From: a virus
Virus record (IMG/VR): IMGVR_UViG_3300037109_000068
Location: 1-64,000 of that record
DNA: 64,000 nt
Strand: one strand, 5' to 3'
Shown here: in pieces, positions 3,041 to 13,821 of the stretch
Layout: each line of letters starts with the position of its first letter
Numbering within the stretch: the first letter of the stretch is position 1
Position numbers and translations under genes: made by a program
Notes under the pieces: model-generated
Databases searched by the model: none
What the model was told of the DNA's origin: nothing
The model's input: only the letters and a program-made list of their open reading frames with translations

Positions 3041-4516
3041 TTAAGCTGCTAGTTTATACTTTTCTTTCTTTAACCAAGGTTCATCTACTGGGCAAATTGC
3101 AATTTCAATTTCTAATGGTAAATTTATCCATTTCCATTCTTCAAGCAATTTTACCGTTGAAATTTCCACAAGTTTTTTAGCAACCATTTCAAGTTCATCT
3201 GGATGTGTATCAATAAGAATACTATCATGGATTTGCCCAATAATTCTTGAATCTAGATCATTTTCTTTAATAAATTTACTCATTTCAATAAATGACCATA
3301 ATAGGCAATGAAAGGCAGCACCTTGTACAGGATAGTTCACTACATCGTTAAACGACATTACGCCAGAACATCTAAACCCTGTATATAAATCAACATAACC
3401 ACATTTAAGATACTCCTGATAGAAATCATCTTTCCATTGTTTGTATTCAAAGTATCTTTCATTCCAGAATTTATCTTCAATGTCTTTAATATGTTTAATA
3501 AACCCTGTTGCTTCTGTAGAACTTTTCCCATTACTACTTGACCATTTAGAAATTGTTCCATATTCTTTTATCCCTTTACCTATTAAATGATCAGAAACAT
3601 AATATGGTTTAAATGGTTTACCTATTTCATTAATTATAATACCTTGCCCGTATTTCCATTTCCCTTGAGGAAGCTTTGCCCAATCAGCAATATTTGCTGC
3701 GCAGTTTTTATAATAATCTCCATAGAATTCTGGAAATATAAATCCATTTTTTGCTGCCTGTCGAAGTGTTGCTTGACCTTCAATCTTTTTATCAATTTTG
3801 TCGAGCATAAAGATCTCCTTCGCCATATCACTATGCATATCACCATGAAGAATATCATAAATCAATTTTTTATCATTGTTGTAGCAAGCCGAAATCCGTA
3901 CTTCGAGCTGTCCGTAGTCACCTTCAAGTAATTGATGTCCAGGACGTGGTATAATTGCAGTCCTGCAAATTTCCTGCATTTCTTTATCTCGAATGGGAAT
4001 ATTTTGAAAATTAACTTGAGAACTACTAGAACGAAAAGTACGAGCTAAATGAAGATTAAAGAAAGGATGCATATATTCATTTACTTGCTCACGTTCAAAA
4101 CCACTAAGTACATCAAGTGACTTTTTTACTTTCTTATGTTCTTCATAAAAGGACAATTCAGGAAGATTTAATTTCTGTAAAGCTTCTTCATCTGTTGATC
4201 CTTTTTTATTAATACCTTTCTTTCCACCTGACGTAAATTTTAAAGGTTTTATCTTCTTTACATTATACAGGAAATTACCTAGTTGATCAGATGAATAAAT
4301 ATTCACTTTTGTTGATTGAGATTTTTCCCATTCTCTGTAAAAAGATGTTTCTTTAAATTGATTTTCAAGTCGTATAATTTTACGAGCAAGTGCTATATTC
4401 TTTTTTTGAATATAATCTACATCAATATGAATACCTTGCATTTCAGCATCTGCAAAAGCAAGAATGCCTTTATGCATTAGCTCGTATGCTTCATTGCAAT
4501 TTGGGTTATAAATCAT
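3041..4516 (-). CDS. family A DNA polymerase, polymerase domain only
   Basis: Motif A DYGQLEVRISA, motif B RQAAKNGFIFPEFYG, motif C IHDSILID. No exonuclease motifs in this ORF. Confidence 0.9.
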   Translation of the reverse strand: MIYNPNCNEAYELMHKGILAFADAEMQGIHIDVDYIQKKNIALARKIIRLENQFKETSFYREWEKSQSTKVNIYSSDQLGNFLYNVKKIKPLKFTSGGKKGINKKGSTDEEALQKLNLPELSFYEEHKKVKKSLDVLSGFEREQVNEYMHPFFNLHLARTFRSSSSQVNFQNIPIRDKEMQEICRTAIIPRPGHQLLEGDYGQLEVRISACYNNDKKLIYDILHGDMHSDMAKEIFMLDKIDKKIEGQATLRQAAKNGFIFPEFYGDYYKNCAANIADWAKLPQGKWKYGQGIIINEIGKPFKPYYVSDHLIGKGIKEYGTISKWSSSNGKSSTEATGFIKHIKDIEDKFWNERYFEYKQWKDDFYQEYLKCGYVDLYTGFRCSGVMSFNDVVNYPVQGAAFHCLLWSFIEMSKFIKENDLDSRIIGQIHDSILIDTHPDELEMVAKKLVEISTVKLLEEWKWINLPLEIEIAICPVDEPWLKKEKYKLAA

Positions 4517-4688
4517 TCTTATTTAGATTTGGATCAATTATAACTAAATAATCTACAGGTACTACAGCAATTATATTATGCTTTATATCAGAAATTATAG
4601 TTCCTGTTGTACCTACACTAAGTTTACAAAATCCTCTTATAAAATATTTTTCACTATTTGAAACAATTGTTATAATTTTTTCTTCCAT
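4506..4688 (-). CDS. hypothetical protein
   Basis: 60-aa ORF overlapping the polymerase start. Confidence 0.3.
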   Translation of the reverse strand: MEEKIITIVSNSEKYFIRGFCKLSVGTTGTIISDIKHNIIAVVPVDYLVIIDPNLNKNDL

Positions 4689-4699
4689 TTTAATAAATT

Positions 4700-5287
4700 T
4701 TAAGCAATTATTAAACCGATTTGGTAATTATTAAACATGTTCATGTAATCTTTTATTGTCTTATTTCCGTCAGTAGCATTATGTCCAGTATTAAGAAAAT
4801 GTTTTAATCCACCAACTCCAGCAAAATGGCTAGCAACTAGCATTGCTGTCCAGGTAATTTTAACCCCGTGAACTGTAGTTCCAATGTACTTTCGATAATC
4901 AGGAATATAACGCTTAATATAAAAACTATTCTTTTTAAGAAGCTTTACAATACATTCATTTTGTGTTTTTTCTGAACTTAAAAATTGCTTTTGAGACCCT
5001 TTATATCCAATGTCTTTTCGAGCAATAGCGGTTAATTGCCATCTACCAGAAGCTCCCGTGGTTTTATTTACTAGATGATATGGACTAACAACACCTCGCT
5101 TAGGATAAGTTTTAATATCCCCACTTTCTGGAATAGATAAAGCTGTTAGAAACTCATCAAATTCATACAAAGCTAGTTTATAACTTACAGCCTTCTGAAA
5201 TGATACTTCAAGACTGATTCTGTCAACTGGGGCACAGCACCTTAAACAAAGTAATGTTCCCAATAAGGCAATAATCAATTTTTTCAT
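4700..5287 (-). CDS. secreted/lipoprotein-like lytic transglycosylase (SLT-like)
   Basis: Signal peptide MKKLIIALLGTLLCLRCC. E-S ... GASGRWQLT resembles the SLT catalytic ES..GAxGLMQ motif. Confidence 0.45.
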   Translation of the reverse strand: MKKLIIALLGTLLCLRCCAPVDRISLEVSFQKAVSYKLALYEFDEFLTALSIPESGDIKTYPKRGVVSPYHLVNKTTGASGRWQLTAIARKDIGYKGSQKQFLSSEKTQNECIVKLLKKNSFYIKRYIPDYRKYIGTTVHGVKITWTAMLVASHFAGVGGLKHFLNTGHNATDGNKTIKDYMNMFNNYQIGLIIA

Positions 5288-5298
5288 AATTTTAAGTA

Positions 5299-5589
5299 TT
5301 AATTAGACATATGATAAATTTTTCTTTTATTTGAATTTATCATTATTGGTGTGAAATATTCACATTTAGTCTTAATATTTTTTTCAGTTAATATTTTTGC
5401 AATTGGTAAGTGAGCAGTTCCTTTAAATTCAGTAGCTAAAGAAAGATGACACCAATGCGATTCTACATTTATATAGCATCTTGCACTATGAAAAATACAA
5501 TACTCACACTTTTCTTTACTGTGTTTATATTTCCAGAGTGCTATTTCTTTTCTCTTTTTCAAAACGGTAGCATTTGATTTATTTGCCAT
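5299..5589 (-). CDS. hypothetical Cys/His-rich protein
   Basis: 96-aa ORF with CEYC..H..C..H.C pattern. Overlaps the upstream gene end by 31 nt. Confidence 0.35.
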   Translation of the reverse strand: MANKSNATVLKKRKEIALWKYKHSKEKCEYCIFHSARCYINVESHWCHLSLATEFKGTAHLPIAKILTEKNIKTKCEYFTPIMINSNKRKIYHMSN

Positions 5590-6803
5590 TCAGCTAATCT
5601 ATATTCGTTTATCGAATCAAATCCATTATATCTAAGCAATTTTTCTTTCTTTTCAGGAATAGTTAATAATTCCATTATATTGTTAATAGAATTCCCACTC
5701 TTTTCATCTTTTGCTTTTAAATATGGTGAGATTTCACTATCATAATCAACGATACCAAATACAACATAAGTTTGAAATTTCAAACTTGTAATACCTGGTC
5801 GATTATCAATTACATGAGCACAAACCATGGTATCCCAATACCATCCTTTTACTTCTACGCCTAATCTTACTTTGGTCCAAACATGTTCAAACTTCATATT
5901 TGAAGCAACTTTCTTTATTTGTTGATTCGTTATTAAATTGATAAATGGTTTTAATTCTCTTCTTGATTTAGGCATTTCAAAAACATAAACATGATCTTCA
6001 CTATCTGCTACTGAACAGCAAACAATTCTATGACCTTCTGCATGCGGTTTCAATCCTGTTGTTTCATAATCAAAAGCAATCATATAAGGTGGTGATTTTG
6101 CTTTTACTTTTCCTATAACTGTATATTCTAATTGTTTTAAATCTGTAATTATTTCAATCTCAGGTTCTTTGTATTTTGGGAATGCTTGTTTTAATTTTTC
6201 AAAGGCTTGTTTTAAATCTTGTTTCCATATAATTGCCTCAACGCCATCATCTAACCTTTCAATATAACTTGGACTAAACGTAGGACAAATCCAACAACCA
6301 AAATCTTGATCAGGAATTGCATGCCCTCTCCATTTAAAAATATTATCTAAATCTCTTTTCCATCTATGACCAATTATACTGTATAGAGCTGAATTACCTA
6401 AAAGTATAATTAACTTAGGTTTATATTTTTCAACTGCTCTTAGAACACGTTGCCGGCAGCAATCTATCTGTAGATTTGTAGGGATTGAGTCTGTTCCATC
6501 TTGTTTTACTGGTCGACAATTACAAGCATAGATATTGATACAATCCTCAAACAAATCAATACCAAATTCAGCAAACGTCCCTTTAAGAATACTTCCAGTT
6601 CTACCTTGCCATTGTTTTCCACGTGCATCATCTTTCTGACTGGGTGCTTCACCAATAGTCATAATCTCTTTTTTGAAATTACCAAAAGGTTCCATACGTG
6701 GAGTAACAATATCTTTATATAAACCACAGGATTCACAAGAAAGACGCTTGCCTTTAGTTTGTGATTTAGATTCTGTTTGTTTTTTAGTGAAAAAACCTTC
6801 CAT
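5559..6803 (-). CDS. UDG family-4-like domain fused to a DnaQ-type 3'-5' exonuclease (proofreading partner of the split PolA)
   Basis: N-terminal CESCGLY and IGEAPSQKDD (UDG4 motif A-like), TFSPSY (motif B-like, His absent). Exo I motif FDYETTGL in the C-terminal half. Confidence 0.7.
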   Translation of the reverse strand: MEGFFTKKQTESKSQTKGKRLSCESCGLYKDIVTPRMEPFGNFKKEIMTIGEAPSQKDDARGKQWQGRTGSILKGTFAEFGIDLFEDCINIYACNCRPVKQDGTDSIPTNLQIDCCRQRVLRAVEKYKPKLIILLGNSALYSIIGHRWKRDLDNIFKWRGHAIPDQDFGCWICPTFSPSYIERLDDGVEAIIWKQDLKQAFEKLKQAFPKYKEPEIEIITDLKQLEYTVIGKVKAKSPPYMIAFDYETTGLKPHAEGHRIVCCSVADSEDHVYVFEMPKSRRELKPFINLITNQQIKKVASNMKFEHVWTKVRLGVEVKGWYWDTMVCAHVIDNRPGITSLKFQTYVVFGIVDYDSEISPYLKAKDEKSGNSINNIMELLTIPEKKEKLLRYNGFDSINEYRLAEWQINQMLPF

Positions 6804-8232: not shown

Positions 8233-8414
8233 GATTCAGGTTCAGTTAATTCTATATTACACATTTTTTTACTAGAATTATTATTAACAATTGATCTTTC
8301 CCAAGCCTTTATTTCTGCTAATGTTGCAGTTTCAGGAAAAAGTTTCTCTTGATAAATATAGTCCCACATATCTTCTGTGACTTGAATAGTCCTTTTAAAT
8401 TTAATTAAAAACAT
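8229..8414 (-). CDS. hypothetical protein
   Basis: 61-aa ORF overlapping its neighbours at both ends. Confidence 0.35.
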   Translation of the reverse strand: MFLIKFKRTIQVTEDMWDYIYQEKLFPETATLAEIKAWERSIVNNNSSKKMCNIELTEPES

Positions 8415-9406
8415 AATTTTTTCATTTTAATTAGTTTATCTAAGATATTATCACTTTTACTGCTTTTTGGAATCATTGCATATGATACTAGAATGTTTAA
8501 ATTTTCTGTTCCCAAGTTATTCTCTTGCATTTTTCTCTGTAGCGTACGAATTGATTTTATTTCATTCGATGCTAAATATAATATAATATTTGAAAATTTT
8601 GCAATAGTTTTCATTAAATAAATAGCATTCCAAGCAGCACGTAATTTAGCGCTAGTCTCAAGTTCAGTCAAAGTGAAATGGTGTTCATCTAGCAATTTTT
8701 CAATTTCTCTTTTATACCCTGGATGTTTTAGAAATGAAGAATTACTTTGAGAAATTTTATCAATATTAAAAAACCCAACAACTTCTGACCCAATATGTTT
8801 CTTTACCCCTGTACCTATTGGAATGCTATTTATATAGCAATTTTCTTTTTTCGATAAATCACTTGGAACAATTGGTAGATCAATTAATCCATATCCTCCA
8901 CCCCTCAATCGCCATGATGATGAGTCTACACTAAACCAGTCATAAGCTAAAGTAAGTTTAAGTGAAGTTACTGCAAATCCATGAAATTTTACTTTTGCTT
9001 TACCTTTAGAGTCAAGTATGTGAGGAACACAAATTTTGTCTAACCATTCTTTCCTCTGCATACTTGTTCTATCATTTGCAGGACTTATTCCAATATATGG
9101 ACCACCTTCTTTTATTAGTTTTTCAATAGCCCATTCTGGATCATCTTGGTGAAATGTATGTAGTAATTTTTCCGTAGGAAGTCCTGCTTTTAGCATCTTT
9201 TGATAATTTGCCCATCCTTCCCAAGCAGCGGTATCAGCTTGAATAGATTGTACCTTTTCATTAGGTTTTCCTGGTATTACGTCCAGTGTTGCAATAGCAT
9301 CAAGGTCTTTTGCATAGCGTTTACAGAATTCAATGTAATTATCAAGGTTTATTCTTTCACCTCGATTCCATACCGAAAATGCTCCTGAATCAAGAAATAT
9401 TCTCAT
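8405..9406 (-). CDS. dpdA: DpdA-like DNA-guanine transglycosylase (TGT superfamily)
   Basis: N-terminus MRIFLDSGAFS typical of phage DpdA. Adjacent to a complete preQ pathway. Confidence 0.7.
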   Translation of the reverse strand: MRIFLDSGAFSVWNRGERINLDNYIEFCKRYAKDLDAIATLDVIPGKPNEKVQSIQADTAAWEGWANYQKMLKAGLPTEKLLHTFHQDDPEWAIEKLIKEGGPYIGISPANDRTSMQRKEWLDKICVPHILDSKGKAKVKFHGFAVTSLKLTLAYDWFSVDSSSWRLRGGGYGLIDLPIVPSDLSKKENCYINSIPIGTGVKKHIGSEVVGFFNIDKISQSNSSFLKHPGYKREIEKLLDEHHFTLTELETSAKLRAAWNAIYLMKTIAKFSNIILYLASNEIKSIRTLQRKMQENNLGTENLNILVSYAMIPKSSKSDNILDKLIKMKKLCF

Positions 9407-9433
9407 TTTTTAATTTTTTAATGTTAAATAAAT

Positions 9434-9536
9434 TGAAGAAAACAGGATTCGAACCTGTGGATGCAAGGGTATTGATACTAGGTTATCACCCTTCCACCTC
9501 TTCCTAGTTAGCATTAAACCACTCTGCCATTTCTTC
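9434..9536 (-). tRNA. tRNA-like gene, long (type II-like), anticodon region non-canonical and unresolved
   Basis: On the minus strand: acceptor GAAGAAA/TTTCTTC, D-arm GCAGAGTGGTTTAATGC, T-arm ACAGGTTCGAATCCTGT. The central 52 nt does not fold as a standard anticodon arm plus variable arm. Confidence 0.5.
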
Positions 9537-9538
9537 AA

Positions 9539-9952
9539 TTATTTCACAGTATATTCTGCTATTATATTGATAAACGTTCCTCCGCGTGGATTGAAATTGC
9601 TTGTTACTTTCATGTAACGTGGTTTACATACAGAAACACAGTCATCTAAAATTATATTTGTAATAGTTTCCATGAAAGAACCAAGATTCCTAAATGCAAG
9701 AAAATAAATCTTTAAACTTTTAGTTTCAATGCATAACTGATCTGGAATATATTCAATTGTAATTGTAGCAAAATCGGGCTGACCTGTTTTAGGACAAAGA
9801 CTAGTAAACTCATTGAAAATAAACTGAGTAACATAATTCCTTTGTGGAAATTTGTTTTGAAATGTTTCTAGCATTTCTGAGGTAGGATTATTATATACAT
9901 ACTTCGTCCCATGGTTTCCTAATTGAGTTAATTTTTTTATATCGTCTTTCAT
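9539..9952 (-). CDS. queF: NADPH-dependent 7-cyano-7-deazaguanine reductase QueF (unimodular type)
   Basis: Catalytic Cys motif SLCPKTGQPDFATI and QueF motif ETKSLKIYF. Confidence 0.9.
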   Translation of the reverse strand: MKDDIKKLTQLGNHGTKYVYNNPTSEMLETFQNKFPQRNYVTQFIFNEFTSLCPKTGQPDFATITIEYIPDQLCIETKSLKIYFLAFRNLGSFMETITNIILDDCVSVCKPRYMKVTSNFNPRGGTFINIIAEYTVK

Positions 9953-10809
9953 AGTTTTATTAATTGGATTAATTCATTTCTTGTATCAGCTTCATTTAAA
10001 AATACTCCTGTAAGACTTGAGGTAGTCATTACAGAATTTTGCTTACTTACACCTCGTTGACACATACATAAATGCTTTGCTTCAATAATGCAAGCAGCAC
10101 CTTTAGGTTGTAAATATTGCATTAAAGCATCAGTTACTTGCTTTCCTATTCGTTCTTGTATCTGTAAACGCTTAGCATATATATCAAGCAGGCGAGCAAG
10201 TTTAGATATTCCGACTATTTTTTTATCGGGAATATACGCAATGTGTGCTTTACCAAAGAAAGAAATCATGTGATGCTCACAAGTTGAGTACATTTCTATA
10301 TTTTTTAGTAAAACCATTTGATCTGTTGTATCATCTTCAAAGCAAGTAAAAATGTCTTTTGGATCTTGATGACACCCTGCAAACATTTCTCCATATGATT
10401 TAATTACACGTTTTGGAGTATCTCTAAGTCCTTCTCTTGTAACATCTTCTCCAATATATTGTAAAATACGTGTAATATTGTCTTGAATATTATCTTCACC
10501 TCCTGGACAAGCTGTTTCCCATGGCATAACTAACCATTTATTGGAATAAAATTGTGTTTCAAATAAAGCATGATAAGTTATATCATCTCCATATTTTTCA
10601 ACGTATGTCCCAAGAGTACATCCTGTAGAAATAACATCATCAAGAATAAAATTAGCATTTTCTGGCTTATGTACAATTTTAGCTTTTTTTAAAAATGCAG
10701 TTAAAATCATTCCACCTTTTGGAATTCCATAAACCGTATATTCTGGACGGTCAATTTTTTCAAGTCTTTCGAAAACTTCTTCCCAGCTTACATAGTATTT
10801 TGCATTCAT
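9949..10809 (-). CDS. folE: GTP cyclohydrolase I (FolE) with an N-terminal Gpt-like phosphoribosyltransferase domain
   Basis: C-terminal ~185 aa: LRDTPKRV, STCEHHM, HLCMCQRGV. N-terminal ~100 aa: KYYVSWEEV, GIPKGG, PRPP loop NFILDDVISTGCTL, VMPWE, as in E. coli Gpt. Confidence 0.85.
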   Translation of the reverse strand: MNAKYYVSWEEVFERLEKIDRPEYTVYGIPKGGMILTAFLKKAKIVHKPENANFILDDVISTGCTLGTYVEKYGDDITYHALFETQFYSNKWLVMPWETACPGGEDNIQDNITRILQYIGEDVTREGLRDTPKRVIKSYGEMFAGCHQDPKDIFTCFEDDTTDQMVLLKNIEMYSTCEHHMISFFGKAHIAYIPDKKIVGISKLARLLDIYAKRLQIQERIGKQVTDALMQYLQPKGAACIIEAKHLCMCQRGVSKQNSVMTTSSLTGVFLNEADTRNELIQLIKL

Positions 10810-11528
10810 AAAGCAAGTGCATTTTTTAAAACAACATCCCAGGTCCCTTCATAACTAACTGGATCAACTAAACCTAATTCATTAAATGAGAGAATTCTCT
10901 CAACACATGATCCACATTTTCCACAAGCAACAATTTGTTCTTTATAACACGTACGAGTCAACAGGTATGGTACTTCAGTAGAATTACTATATCCTATTCT
11001 AAGAATTTCTGCCTTCGAAATGTTCATAAAAGGAACATATAAACCTATTTTTCCGTCTGATGAGTGAGATATTGTTTTTTGTAATGATACTAAAAAATCT
11101 GGCCTACAATCTGGGTAAATATGATGGTCCCCAGCATGTACAGCTAATCCAATTGTATCTGCTCTTATTGATTCAGCAAATCCTGCCATAATAGATGCAA
11201 AGATTAAATTACGCCCTGGTACAACAGTTTTTCGCATATTATGATTATTGTAGTGACCTTCGGGAATTTTTTCACCTTGTGTTAATAAAGCAGAATTAAA
11301 ATATTGGAAAGTATATCGTAGATCAAATGTTGTATGATATACTCCATATCCTGCTTCTCTGTAAAATTGAACAAGATCTACTGCTGATTGCAATTCAAAT
11401 GCATTATGCTTTGATCCATAATAAAATGAACAGCAATGCACTTCATACTCTTGTCTTAATAATGTACCTAATAATGTAGCAGAATCCATTCCACCAGACA
11501 AGCCTATAACTATTTTATTCATATTCAA
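10806..11528 (-). CDS. queC: 7-cyano-7-deazaguanine synthase QueC
   Basis: PP-loop GLSGGMDS. C-terminal Zn site CGKCGSCVER. Confidence 0.9.
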   Translation of the reverse strand: MNMNKIVIGLSGGMDSATLLGTLLRQEYEVHCCSFYYGSKHNAFELQSAVDLVQFYREAGYGVYHTTFDLRYTFQYFNSALLTQGEKIPEGHYNNHNMRKTVVPGRNLIFASIMAGFAESIRADTIGLAVHAGDHHIYPDCRPDFLVSLQKTISHSSDGKIGLYVPFMNISKAEILRIGYSNSTEVPYLLTRTCYKEQIVACGKCGSCVERILSFNELGLVDPVSYEGTWDVVLKNALAL

Positions 11529-11600
11529 TTAGTTAAAAATTAATGATTAAAAAGTAAAAACCCAGATAAAATGAATTACACAATATCTGGGTTTTTTGTT

Positions 11601-12410
11601 TTATTTACCGAATTTATACAGACCATCTGCACTTTGAACAACCAACTTTGGAAATTGATTGTATTTAGGATTTTTGCAGTCCGTTAACAATGTTTGAAAA
11701 CTTGTAGCGGAAGCATCCGGGAATTTCTTTGCAAGCATTTCAATCAATTGAACTTTTGTATATTTTCCTTTTTCAATGAATGGCGAAATGAAAGCAATTC
11801 TTTCTTTGGTAAGTGTTCCTTTACTTCCTGCAGGTGATTTTACTTTAGTTTCAGTTTTTGCCTTTGCTGCAGGTTTTGCTTCTTCAACTACTTTTCTTAC
11901 CGCTTTCTTTGCAGGTTTTTCTTCGGGTACTTCTTCATCATCATCCGGAGCCTCTAACATGTCATCTGTATCCACTACATAATTCAGCATTTCTTCGCGA
12001 AGTTCATCAATGTCTTTTATTTTAAGATCTACGTCTTCGAATTCCGGGTAGGTCTTTGCAATTTCCTTCAATTCCTTCAATGTGGTAGCATCCTGGACAA
12101 ATTTGTAAACATTTACTTCTACTTCTTCTTCAGGCTCGTCTTCAGGTTCAACTTCTTCAACTACTACTTTTTTGATTGCTTTTCCTTTTGCAGGTTTTGC
12201 TACTTCTTTTTTTGCAGGTTCAGCAGTTACTTCGGCAATAATAGCACGAGTAGCATCTGATAATTCATCATCATCTGTAATAAAATCACTTGCTTCTTTT
12301 ATGCCTTGAATTAAGACATCTTCACCACCATCCAAATCAATACCGGTATCAAATCCAGGTAATTCATTAATTTCTGCTGCTGCTTTTTTCAACTGTTTTA
12401 AATTTGCCAT
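11601..12410 (-). CDS. acidic/Lys-rich protein with the conserved C-terminal TDCKNPKYN domain (paralog 1 of 3)
   Basis: The C-terminal ~65 aa align with the C-termini of ORFs 23962-24420 and 25746-26111 (FIEKG..T..LLTDCKNPKYNQFPKLV). AKPAK/EE-rich N-terminal part. Confidence 0.6.
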   Translation of the reverse strand: MANLKQLKKAAAEINELPGFDTGIDLDGGEDVLIQGIKEASDFITDDDELSDATRAIIAEVTAEPAKKEVAKPAKGKAIKKVVVEEVEPEDEPEEEVEVNVYKFVQDATTLKELKEIAKTYPEFEDVDLKIKDIDELREEMLNYVVDTDDMLEAPDDDEEVPEEKPAKKAVRKVVEEAKPAAKAKTETKVKSPAGSKGTLTKERIAFISPFIEKGKYTKVQLIEMLAKKFPDASATSFQTLLTDCKNPKYNQFPKLVVQSADGLYKFGK

Positions 12411-12597
12411 ACGTTTTAAAATTTTAAATTAATAATATTAAATTAAGTTCACTGTCAAAGCCAGGTTGCATTAAGCAGAGCCTGGCTTCTTCAAACAAAA
12501 CAACTAACTAATTAACCAACTTTTAAACCAATTACCATGAAAAACAAATATAACAATTATTTTTTAGCATTAAAATTTATTTTCAAAAAAGAATAAA

Positions 12598-12816
12598 TTA
12601 TTTACGAAGTTTTTCCAAATCCTCAATAGACATCTCTCTTAATTGACCATCTTGCTTTTCGGCAATTAAAGCATCAATTTTTTGATTATGTGCCTTATTA
12701 TCGGCAGCATTTCGTAATTCTTCATTTTCTTTCTTATTGGTGAGGTAGACATCTTTAAGAATATCAAATCTTAATTGATTTTCAACATCTACAGTGCTAC
12801 TACCCACTGCGAACAC
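12598..12816 (-). CDS. hypothetical coiled-coil protein
   Basis: 72-aa ORF between queE and the paralog gene. Confidence 0.35.
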   Translation of the reverse strand: MFAVGSSTVDVENQLRFDILKDVYLTNKKENEELRNAADNKAHNQKIDALIAEKQDGQLREMSIEDLEKLRK

Positions 12817-12842
12817 CCAAGTTGCAAGAGCATTTCTAACTA

Positions 12843-13463
12843 TTATTTAAACCCTGCAAATTTATGCATTTGAATTGAAAGTTTCCAACCTGGATTATTC
12901 TTTACAAATTCAACCGCACCTTTAATATTTTCCGTACTTTCCTTTGTATATGGATTCATAAAAATTATTGGAGAGATATAATATTCATCTGCACCTGAAA
13001 TGCTTCGTATATTTGGAAGATTAAGATTTTTGCTATCAAAAGGAAATCTAAATTCTCCACAAAATCCATCTTTAAAATCAGAATGCAATTGATCTAAATC
13101 TTTTGGAGAACAAGAAATATAATCAAATTGAAATGGTAAACTTATTGTGCCATTTGTCTCCAATAATTGAGCATAATTATCTTCAAAAAATTCACAAATT
13201 TCCTCAGTTAATTGTAAAAGAGGTTCTCCGCCTGTCCAAATGATATTCAAACATTTATATTTACTAATTTCATCCAAAATTTCCTCTACTGTCATTTCTT
13301 TATAAGCTACCCATTCAGTGTCACAGAAATCACAAGATAAATTGCATCCAGCAAGTCGAATAAATATAGCAGGCATTCCAGTATTAAATCCTTCTCCCTG
13401 TATGGAAAAAAAGATCTCATTTACTTTAAGCTTCATAACGTGCAGAAGTTTTATCGGTTTCAC
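12843..13463 (-). CDS. queE: 7-carboxy-7-deazaguanine synthase QueE (radical SAM)
   Basis: CNLSCDFCDT (CxxxCxxC) and GGEPLL motif. Confidence 0.85.
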   Translation of the reverse strand: MKPIKLLHVMKLKVNEIFFSIQGEGFNTGMPAIFIRLAGCNLSCDFCDTEWVAYKEMTVEEILDEISKYKCLNIIWTGGEPLLQLTEEICEFFEDNYAQLLETNGTISLPFQFDYISCSPKDLDQLHSDFKDGFCGEFRFPFDSKNLNLPNIRSISGADEYYISPIIFMNPYTKESTENIKGAVEFVKNNPGWKLSIQMHKFAGFK

Positions 13464-13821
13464 TAACTGTTACAGCATTTATTTTTATACCATCTCGATA
13501 TAGATCTGGTAGAAGTTCTTTGCATTTAATAAAGATTACACGTGCCATGTTTTCGGCAGTAGGATTACATAAAGATTCATTTGTAATGAAATATTGACCA
13601 TCATTTAAATCTTTATGGTCAAAAGTTTCATCAATCCATTTTTTAATAGGTTCAAGTCGTCTGTAATCAAAAACCATTCCAACACTATCTAAAATGTTTG
13701 AAACTAATTCTACGGTCACTTTATAATTATGACCATGAAACGTTGAACAAGGGTGATCCTCAGGCAATCTCCGAAGATGATGCCCTGCACTGAAATGAAA
13801 TTCTTTACTAATGGTATACAT
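13426..13821 (-). CDS. queD: 6-carboxy-5,6,7,8-tetrahydropterin synthase QueD
   Basis: FSAGHHL, CSTFHGHNYKV, and ETxxT-like end SETDKTSARYE. Confidence 0.9.
   Translation of the reverse strand: MYTISKEFHFSAGHHLRRLPEDHPCSTFHGHNYKVTVELVSNILDSVGMVFDYRRLEPIKKWIDETFDHKDLNDGQYFITNESLCNPTAENMARVIFIKCKELLPDLYRDGIKINAVTVSETDKTSARYEA

Follow-up and report, generated by a model that had tools for sequence, protein, structure and literature searches.

What is the extra domain of roughly 100 residues that precedes GTP cyclohydrolase I (FolE) in a phage gene cluster for 7-deazaguanine DNA modification, and what might it do there? The locus that raises this question lies in the IMG/VR virus record IMGVR_UViG_3300037109_000068, whose positions 1 to 64,000 make up the stretch of DNA analysed here (the window), and consists of a single open reading frame (ORF) on the minus strand. 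An earlier note, made from the letters of this DNA alone, had described the extra domain as Gpt-like and had proposed that it could recycle guanine. Judging from profile alignments and predicted structures, the N-terminal module is a descendant of a Gpt-type 6-oxopurine phosphoribosyltransferase (PRT), and it is fused to a complete FolE. This module, which we call here the mini-PRT, turns up repeatedly as an accessory in phage gene sets for 7-deazaguanine DNA modification, where it is either fused to the GTP-consuming entry enzyme or encoded beside it. The ORF and its two parts are placed as follows.

9949..10809, minus strand: PRT-FolE fusion ORF, 286 residues
10498..10809, minus strand: N-terminal mini-PRT domain, residues 1-104, Gpt/XGPRT-like (profile comparison with the PDB, AF2, Foldseek)
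9949..10497, minus strand: conserved linker and FolE type IA domain, residues 105-286, plus the stop codon (Pfam, NCBIfam, Foldseek)

Such an arrangement could in principle be an artefact, in which the true start of FolE would be internal and the 100 codons upstream would represent a decaying remnant or a separate gene. The ATG at 10809 lacks a clear Shine-Dalgarno sequence, and an extra 'hypothetical protein' is annotated over the N-terminal part in PaMx25 records, two features that would fit this explanation. However, the ORF is single and uninterrupted, and its ATG overlaps the stop codon of QueC (ATGA) in the same way as its own stop overlaps the ATG of QueF, so that QueC, the fusion, and QueF are translationally coupled. 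Together with the conservation of the N-terminal domain (N-domain) in 293 homologues, these overlaps indicate that the PRT domain is translated together with FolE, and the downstream start that the earlier note had considered as a possible refutation is rejected. In addition, a protein identical to the window fusion (P0001) is encoded on a metagenomic contig of 69.7 kb, and the same architecture, with invariant active-site residues, is present in more than 117 metagenomic homologues at 97-100% query coverage (full-length homologues, of approximately 280-300 residues, number at least 120, with one row at 91%). The predicted structure of the full-length fusion is confident as one body (pLDDT 94.4, pTM 0.83), including across the domain junction, and the linker is conserved, reading DHPxGE in the close family. 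The intact coupled ORF, the homologues, the identical protein, and the confident model effectively exclude an internal start or an assembly artefact.

The C-terminal module is a normal, intact zinc-dependent GTP cyclohydrolase I (GTPCH-I), the enzyme that turns GTP into dihydroneopterin triphosphate and thereby opens the route to CDG, preQ0, and preQ1. Pfam PF01227 matches residues 108-284 (E 5e-70, 235 bits with a cut-off of 27), and NCBIfam FolE models also match above their cut-offs (E 4e-72; TIGR00063, 224 bits with a cut-off of 181.6). With FolE placed by the two at residues 108-285, the first ~105 residues are not FolE, as had been claimed before for the first ~100. Compared with GTPCH-I from Mycobacterium tuberculosis, Thermus thermophilus, and human, this part gives Foldseek TMt values of 0.88-0.93 and a root-mean-square deviation of 1.1-1.6 A (T-fold). 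Its catalytic centre is located at the following position.

10270..10281, minus strand: FolE zinc/catalytic motif C177-E-H-H180 (sequence), invariant in 117 homologues

The second Cys ligand is C248, and the five residues C177, E178, H179, H180, and C248 are all invariant in the same 117 homologues. As a side observation, some fusions, which are 422-583 residues long (P0122, P0253; L027:9929-11671), have their FolE interrupted by an intein beside the Cys-Glu-His-His motif, in one case with an HNH endonuclease.

The identification of the N-terminal part is a more complicated task. A fold search with the full-length model returned FolE structures only, and the N-domain was therefore re-modelled alone; likewise, a word-indexed homologue search with the N-domain alone gave no matches, and an exhaustive search was used instead. 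Two profiles were built, A2 from 42 N-domains and A3 from 61 more diverse sequences. The best PDB matches of A2 were the xanthine-guanine PRTs (XGPRT) of E. coli and Yersinia (E=1.6e-8), and A3 aligned with XGPRT across the whole Gpt length with E=8e-12, which sets the resemblance to Gpt noticed earlier far above chance, whereas Hpt-type chains were far weaker in the PDB profile search (E ~0.07 or higher). The AlphaFold (AF2) model of the N-domain alone, with a pLDDT of 91.8, has predicted strands at residues 3-6, 25-28, 54-60, 78-84, and 91-94, which would form a Rossmann-like parallel beta-sheet core, and Foldseek matches this model to the purine PRTs 1vdm, 4jls, and 1a95 with probability 1.00 and a TM of ~0.6, so that the PRT fold proposed by the earlier note is borne out by the prediction. 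The top match in the viral structure library BFVD is the phiST 'phosphoribosyl transferase'. The sole family match of the N-domain is PHROG 8995, 'phosphoribosyl transferase', a weak one with E 1e-4; in NCBIfam the PRT score is not reached, the best model being APRT (E 0.14), and a precomputed match to PF00156 exists in only one of the at least 120 full-length homologues.

Overall, the best profile and fold matches are thus Gpt/XGPRT (1A95, 1NUL, 4JLS, 5XTK) and 1VDM from Pyrococcus horikoshii. With Gpt, the mini-PRT shares the order of a K-Y-x-x-W helix, the (S/P)-(R/K)-G-G loop, the DDxxD(S/T)GxT motif, the O6 Lys, the stacking Trp, and a PW(D/E) end; unlike Gpt, it is ~40 residues shorter, fused to FolE, and below the PF00156 threshold. 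The four motifs that had been quoted for the window protein, K4YYVSWEEV12, G28IPKGG33, N53...L66, and V94MPWE98, are present in the translation in the order given there. Alignment with Gpt, in part by hidden Markov model (HMM), places the active-site elements of the window copy as follows.

10711..10728, minus strand: pyrophosphate-binding loop G28-I-P-K-G-G33, equivalent to Gpt S36-R37-G38-G39 (HMM alignment)
10612..10653, minus strand: loop binding phosphoribosyl pyrophosphate (PRPP), N53-FILDDVISTGCT-L66, equivalent to Gpt 84-97, with S61 replacing the Asp of the family (sequence)
10555..10557, minus strand: T85, at the position of Gpt K115, the 6-oxo-recognising Lys (alignment of 293 relatives)
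10516..10536, minus strand: hood remnant W92-LVMPW-E98, equivalent to Gpt W134...P138-W139-D140 (HMM alignment)

The conservation of each residue was counted over 293 non-identical, near-full-length N-domains, gathered from protein searches and IMG/VR.

R/K31, equivalent to Gpt R37: 261/293 (89%)
G33: 292/293
D57, equivalent to Gpt D88: 290/293
D58, equivalent to Gpt D89: 291/293
D61, equivalent to Gpt D92: 273/293 (93%), plus 8 with Glu
S/T62, equivalent to Gpt T93: 289/293
G63, equivalent to Gpt G94: 290/293
T65, equivalent to Gpt T96: 288/293
K85, equivalent to Gpt K115: 238/293 (81%), plus 17 with Arg, Lys or Arg being present in 255/293 (87%)
W92, equivalent to Gpt W134: 283/293 (97%)
P96: 293/293
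E98, equivalent to Gpt D140: 288/293 (98%)

In 6-oxopurine PRTs, Gpt D92 (D137 in human HGPRT) is the general-base Asp contacting the purine N7, Gpt K115 (HGPRT K165) is the Lys contacting O6, W134 is the base-stacking Trp, and D140 is an acidic residue of the Mg site. The retention of the Gpt/HGPRT active site across the 293 N-domains fits selection on a purine/PRPP site, and the module may be regarded as a reduced core for binding PRPP or a 5'-phosphate, pyrophosphate, and a stacked purine.

How widespread is this module, and what does it accompany? An exhaustive search with the N-domain retrieved 221 cluster representatives at E<=1e-3, which are mostly FolE fusions; two of the representatives carry an intein inside FolE. 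Searches of IMG/VR confirmed 175 stretches, and 80 loci were analysed, with their neighbours called by ad hoc HMMs. FolE carries the module as a fusion in 74 of these 80 loci, and in the remaining 6 the module has its own gene at a distance of 0.6-1.5 kb from FolE. QueE is found in 76 of them, QueD in 71, DpdA in 66 (with an ad hoc HMM that would miss DpdA3), and QueC in 47, with QueF present in a minority only; where DpdA is not detected, the contig is almost always short. The same fusion is therefore found in other dpdA-bearing phages, as the earlier note had suggested looking for, and the module occurs whatever the final 7-deazaguanine base is. A different partner is found in P0153 (L003:2967-4661), where the mini-PRT (residues 29-132) is followed by an uncharacterised middle region of ~155 residues and by FolE2 (GCHY-1, PF02649), a protein non-homologous to FolE, within a cluster arranged as QueC-x-QueD-x-QueE-[PRT-FolE2]. 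Be it through the fusion to FolE, the fusion to FolE2, or the neighbourhood of FolE, it is to GTP cyclohydrolase that the module is genetically linked.

Among isolated phages, FolE is encoded in 386 records, and the N-domain is fused to it in 34 of them, all labelled 'GTP cyclohydrolase' only. These isolates include the Pseudomonas phages NP1, PaMx25, JG054, and Quinobequin-P09, the Vibrio phages VpKK5 and 1.207.B, and further phages of Stenotrophomonas, Xanthomonas, Sphingomonas, and Variovorax.

What could a Gpt-derived module contribute at this step? TGT-family enzymes release one guanine per exchange, and Gpt converts guanine and PRPP into GMP. The reading that we favour, even though we give it somewhat less than an even chance, is that the mini-PRT serves guanine salvage and removal, feeding FolE. 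It would take the guanine expelled by DpdA at each exchange and condense it with PRPP to give GMP, which would also take away a competitor of the 7-deazaguanine, since free guanine could be inserted again in its place. Host Gmk and Ndk would then convert GMP into GTP, refilling the pool drained by FolE. In such a mechanism the fusion would ensure co-expression and a fixed stoichiometry, and would bring the small domain onto the oligomer formed by FolE, with no true substrate channelling. Salvage is favoured because the family keeps the N7-contacting Asp, a residue expected where the substrate is guanine but not where it is a 7-deazapurine; because the partner is the entry enzyme of the pathway, in two unrelated forms; because the module is present regardless of the 7-deazaguanine produced; and because its closest relatives are guanine/xanthine PRTs. 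The presence of DpdA, the source of free guanine, in 66 of the 80 IMG/VR loci is also counted in its favour.

A number of points weigh against salvage. The Pfam scan of the window protein gave no match to PF00156 even at E<=1. In type I PRTs, efficient catalysis requires the flexible loop II, which folds down onto the active site, and in the mini-PRT ~25 residues corresponding to it are deleted (Gpt ~48-72 in the HMM alignment, and also in the MAFFT alignments A4 and A5). A further ~11 residues of the hood are absent in the HMM alignment (Gpt ~117-127). The earlier description of the hood/loop region as missing is thus correct; of the hood, W92 and E98 are retained. With the catalytic flexible loop absent, PRT activity cannot be assumed. 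The window copy, moreover, has lost both the N7-contacting Asp and the O6-contacting Lys, having S61 and T85 instead. Together with its closest relative, P0002, it is an outlier in the family, the two of them sharing S61 and having T or A at position 85; across the family, 10 of the 20 sequences without Asp61 are also without Lys or Arg at position 85. This joint loss in outlier lineages suggests that the domain can persist without the canonical base site, and the D61S and K85T replacements mean that the activity of the window copy may be weakened or its specificity shifted. Finally, hosts normally own Gpt or Hpt, and the conversion of GMP into GTP needs two kinases, none of which was found among the window ORFs scanned: PHROG scans of 30 window ORFs revealed no Gmk, Ndk, PRPP synthetase, or ribonucleotide reductase (RNR). 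These two kinase steps between GMP and GTP, with no phage kinase found, make the channelling of guanine back to preQ0 that the earlier note had envisaged unlikely.

The same trimming of the fold opens the way to a different explanation, which we consider rather improbable, where the mini-PRT would be a non-catalytic module adjusting the activity or the assembly of FolE in response to a bound ligand, which could be guanine, GMP, PRPP, or a 7-deazaguanine. Not only would the deleted loop II and the trimmed hood be compatible with such a function, but also the conserved linker and the single confident body of the full-length model, which suggest a fixed interface and not a loose tether, as well as the persistence of the domain in the window copy and in several lineages despite the loss of both base contacts. 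There are precedents for regulation of this kind. GFRP, which acts on mammalian GTPCH-I, is a small ligand-binding regulator, with which the mini-PRT has no homology, and GFRP-GTPCH-I structures are found among the fold matches of FolE; PurR and PyrR, in turn, use PRT folds as regulators, although both keep the full PRT fold, unlike the mini-PRT. However, the Arg/Lys of the pyrophosphate loop, the Mg/ribose Asp pair, the general-base Asp, and the Mg-site Glu are kept in 89-99% of the family, which is more than simple sensing of a ligand would require, and a loop II-like insert is still present in some phage homologues (phiST, MaInes).

Stand-alone homologues bear on this regulatory explanation from both sides. 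The phage proteins P0130, P0140, P0166, P0176, and P0251 (A3), of ~130-150 residues, end in a C-terminal helix resembling helix 1 of FolE (D-x-x-I-R-L-L-Q-x-x). This tail suggests either that they arose by fission from a fusion or that the helix is part of the PRT folding unit, and its presence on P0130, P0140, and P0166 would agree with a non-catalytic module acting on FolE. P0130 is encoded directly after a QueE-like radical SAM gene. On the other hand, loop-less relatives are also free-standing in cellular contexts with no FolE nearby, which argues that the ancestral role was not the regulation of FolE. Across 185,579 species genomes, at least nine loci match the A2 profile, a lower bound given its narrow search patterns. 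Three of these nine are phage-like fusion contigs in metagenome-assembled genomes, and one is a QueD-FolE-PRT-QueC-QueE cluster from Saccharibacteria. The other five are stand-alone genes of 122-131 residues from Prochlorococcus, Parcubacteria, Yanofskybacteria, and Clostridia, whose surroundings are cellular and contain no que genes, at the following positions.

L092:758-1153: cellular stand-alone PRT
L096:845-1240: cellular stand-alone PRT
L097:10001-10384: cellular stand-alone PRT
L095:3909-4280: cellular stand-alone PRT
L093:10001-10369: cellular stand-alone PRT

These five relatives are also without loop II, yet they pass Pfam PF00156 with 38-40 bits (cut-off 26.3), and several cellular relatives have Ala or Glu at the position of Gpt D92. 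In Prochlorococcus single-cell genomes, the PRT adjoins a gene of the nucleoside 2-deoxyribosyltransferase family (Pfam), and the next ORF begins with a P-loop motif. These loop-less relatives are also counted on the side of salvage. On the Yanofskybacteria contig, the ORFs flanking the PRT resemble, by eye, the halves of a transketolase.

Several isolated phages carry the module as a separate gene of 131-161 residues, as is the case of phiST, immuto_2-6A (gp211), the Campylobacter phages CP220, CP21, and F379, and MaInes (PHROG 8995). These stand-alone PRTs belong to the same family as the fused ones, according to tblastn and alignment A5, and are found in phages with FolE/QueD/QueE sets, often next to FolE. 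They differ in that an insert resembling loop II and the full hood are still present in phiST and MaInes. At the position of Gpt D92, Asp is present in four out of four (phiST, MaInes, immuto, F379), and at the position of Gpt K115 a Lys can be recognised clearly in three of them, F379 being the exception. The cluster of the Flavobacterium phage immuto_2-6A reads QueD-QueE-PRT-FolE-DpdA-DpdN-QueF, with gp211 immediately upstream of FolE. In the Cellulophaga phages phiST (CGPG_00045), phi13:1, and phi19:2, the stand-alone PRT is located near the ribonucleotide reductase, three genes away from it in phiST. The homologue is also present in 15 Campylobacter phage records, including CP220, where it is annotated as a PRT, and in Brevundimonas phages (MaInes) it is encoded directly downstream of FolE. 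The label 'purine phosphoribosyltransferase / queuosine biosynthesis protein' is given to the copy in one GenBank record. In the MaInes stretch L100:2672-7486, RNR beta and alpha, a dNMP kinase, FolE, and a 'xanthine phosphoribosyltransferase' stand in one row, and no annotation of QueD or QueE is found in that stretch.

These stand-alone genes are of interest in relation to the extent of guanine replacement. Replacement of dG is reported to be complete in phiST (by dDG), immuto_2-6A (fdPreQ1), and CP220 (dADG), all of them attributed to DpdA3 (PMC10516641), while in CAjan, Rosebush, 9g, HVTV-1, Dp-1, nt-1, and phiSM 32% or less is replaced (PMC10516641, PMC6884629). In our tblastn searches, a homologue of the module was found in three out of three complete-replacement phages, and none of the seven partial-replacement phages appears by name among the matches listed, both of which are small samples. 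The presence in the complete-replacement phages is also counted in favour of salvage. The stand-alone homologues of the complete-replacement phages are placed as follows.

L098:8956-9351: stand-alone homologue
L099:6989-7417: stand-alone homologue
NC_027997.1 163878-164249: stand-alone homologue
L102:7001-7414: stand-alone homologue

This distribution brings in a third explanation, to which we attach a low probability, modelled on the PRTs ToyH and TubE. ToyH and TubE are full-length Hpt-like PRTs. A mini-PRT acting in a similar way would take a 7-deazaguanine base, be it CDG, DG, preQ0, preQ1, or ADG, and combine it with PRPP to form a 7-deaza-GMP analogue, which is the alternative that the earlier note had raised and is still a live rival. 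This would open a route through nucleoside mono- and diphosphates, RNR, deoxynucleoside triphosphates, and the polymerase that supplements or replaces the exchange by DpdA. The toyocamycin and tubercidin clusters pair FolE/QueD/QueE(/QueC) with a PF00156 PRT acting on preQ0 or CDG (bioRxiv 10.64898/2026.04.15.718813), a genetic linkage like the one described here, although the likeness is by genetic analogy only, and these clusters belong to actinomycete secondary metabolism and are without DpdA. Apart from the stand-alone homologue in all three complete-replacement phages, this explanation would be supported by the phiST copy, which is close to RNR and does not adjoin FolE, and by the observations that an ADG nucleoside is seen in CP220-infected cells and that DpdA3 was not reconstituted in E. 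coli (PMC10516641). Ser61 of the window copy would also agree with it, since a 7-substituted 7-deazapurine would not need the Asp and could clash with it.

However, the N7-contacting Asp is kept in 93% of the family, the module is tied to FolE or FolE2 and not to QueC, QueF, QueE, or DpdA, and DpdA is present in most loci, where a second route would not be needed. In addition, the closest solved relatives are Gpt-type guanine/xanthine PRTs and not the Hpt-type chains, and neither a phage kinase nor an RNR was found among the 30 window ORFs scanned with PHROG. Guanine salvage and removal remains the reading that we prefer.

Tentatively, and with less confidence than in salvage itself, we also propose that phage 7-deazaguanine modification has in the mini-PRT a functional part that has escaped notice, one that sets how completely G is replaced. 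This could happen in two ways. In the first, a cycle from guanine through GMP and GTP to preQ0 would pull the exchange by DpdA to completion. In the second, the S61/T85-type variants and the DpdA3 phages would phosphoribosylate a 7-deazaguanine base, providing a pre-replicative nucleotide route, which would run counter to the accepted idea that modifications of this kind are always post-replicative. Present descriptions of the phage pathway consist of FolE-QueD-QueE-(QueC/QueF/...) plus DpdA, leaving aside both the fate of the displaced guanine and the reason why some phages reach 100% and others <=30%. To this description, a module derived from Gpt and accompanying GTP cyclohydrolase adds a definite part that can be tested. 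A mini-PRT without the catalytic loop is also an unusual minimal PRT, of interest for PRT enzymology, and the annotation of dozens of isolate genomes, which says 'GTP cyclohydrolase' only, leaves out a domain that Pfam misses.

Regarding novelty, both parent families are already known, as are the stand-alone phage homologues labelled as PRTs, and the claim of the earlier note that the fusion was undescribed therefore holds for the fusion and not for its free-standing relatives. PRTs are mentioned neither in Hutinet 2019 (PMC6884629) nor in the main text of Hutinet 2023 (PMC10516641), and no description of the fusion, of the loop-less form, of the FolE2 fusion, or of a recurrent accessory status was found in these papers or in full-text searches; an earlier discussion of the Campylobacter phage PRT is possible. 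A parallel is Gat-QueC, where a core enzyme of the pathway likewise bears an extra catalytic domain in phage clusters (PMC6884629, PMC10516641), but which involves another domain and another partner at the end of the pathway, whereas the mini-PRT-FolE fusion stands at its entry.

The fusion of the window is embedded in a 7-deazaguanine set (FolE, QueD, QueE, QueC, QueF, DpdA), located within 8405-13821 on one strand. The gene order is QueD-QueE-two ORFs-QueC-[PRT-FolE]-QueF-DpdA, followed by a sliding clamp and a DNA polymerase.

13426..13821, minus strand: QueD, PTPS family (Pfam PF01242, E 1e-32)
12843..13463, minus strand: QueE, radical SAM (Pfam PF04055, PF13353)
10806..11528, minus strand: QueC (Pfam PF06508, E 6e-51)
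9539..9952, minus strand: QueF, unimodular (Pfam PF14489, E 3e-30)
8405..9406, minus strand: DpdA-like DNA guanine transglycosylase (PHROG 887 'queuine tRNA-ribosyltransferase', E 5e-38)

BLASTP detected no similarity between the DpdA of the window and the DpdA3 of immuto, and the former is therefore not of the DpdA3 type. The two ORFs between QueC and QueE, both on the minus strand, are one at 11601-12410, of 269 residues, which has no family match and looks by eye acidic and Lys/Ala/Glu-rich, and one at 12598-12816, of 72 residues. The window as a whole is a phage genome with a GC content of 31% and with terminase, structural, and lysis genes, and a megablast of the locus against isolated phages revealed no close relative. 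A run of ORFs of similar size at 40.5-48.6 kb was considered as a set of paralogues and rejected, as they are not paralogous.

Downstream of the cluster, the family A-like DNA polymerase (window 3041-6803, minus strand) is split in two ORFs. The one at 5559-6803 (414 residues) matches positions 477-828 of the PHROG 17 profile, and the one at 3041-4516 (491 residues) matches positions 834-1236; the ORF of 195 residues between them (4700-5287) has no PHROG match. This split could result from a homing-endonuclease-type insertion or could represent a naturally split polymerase.

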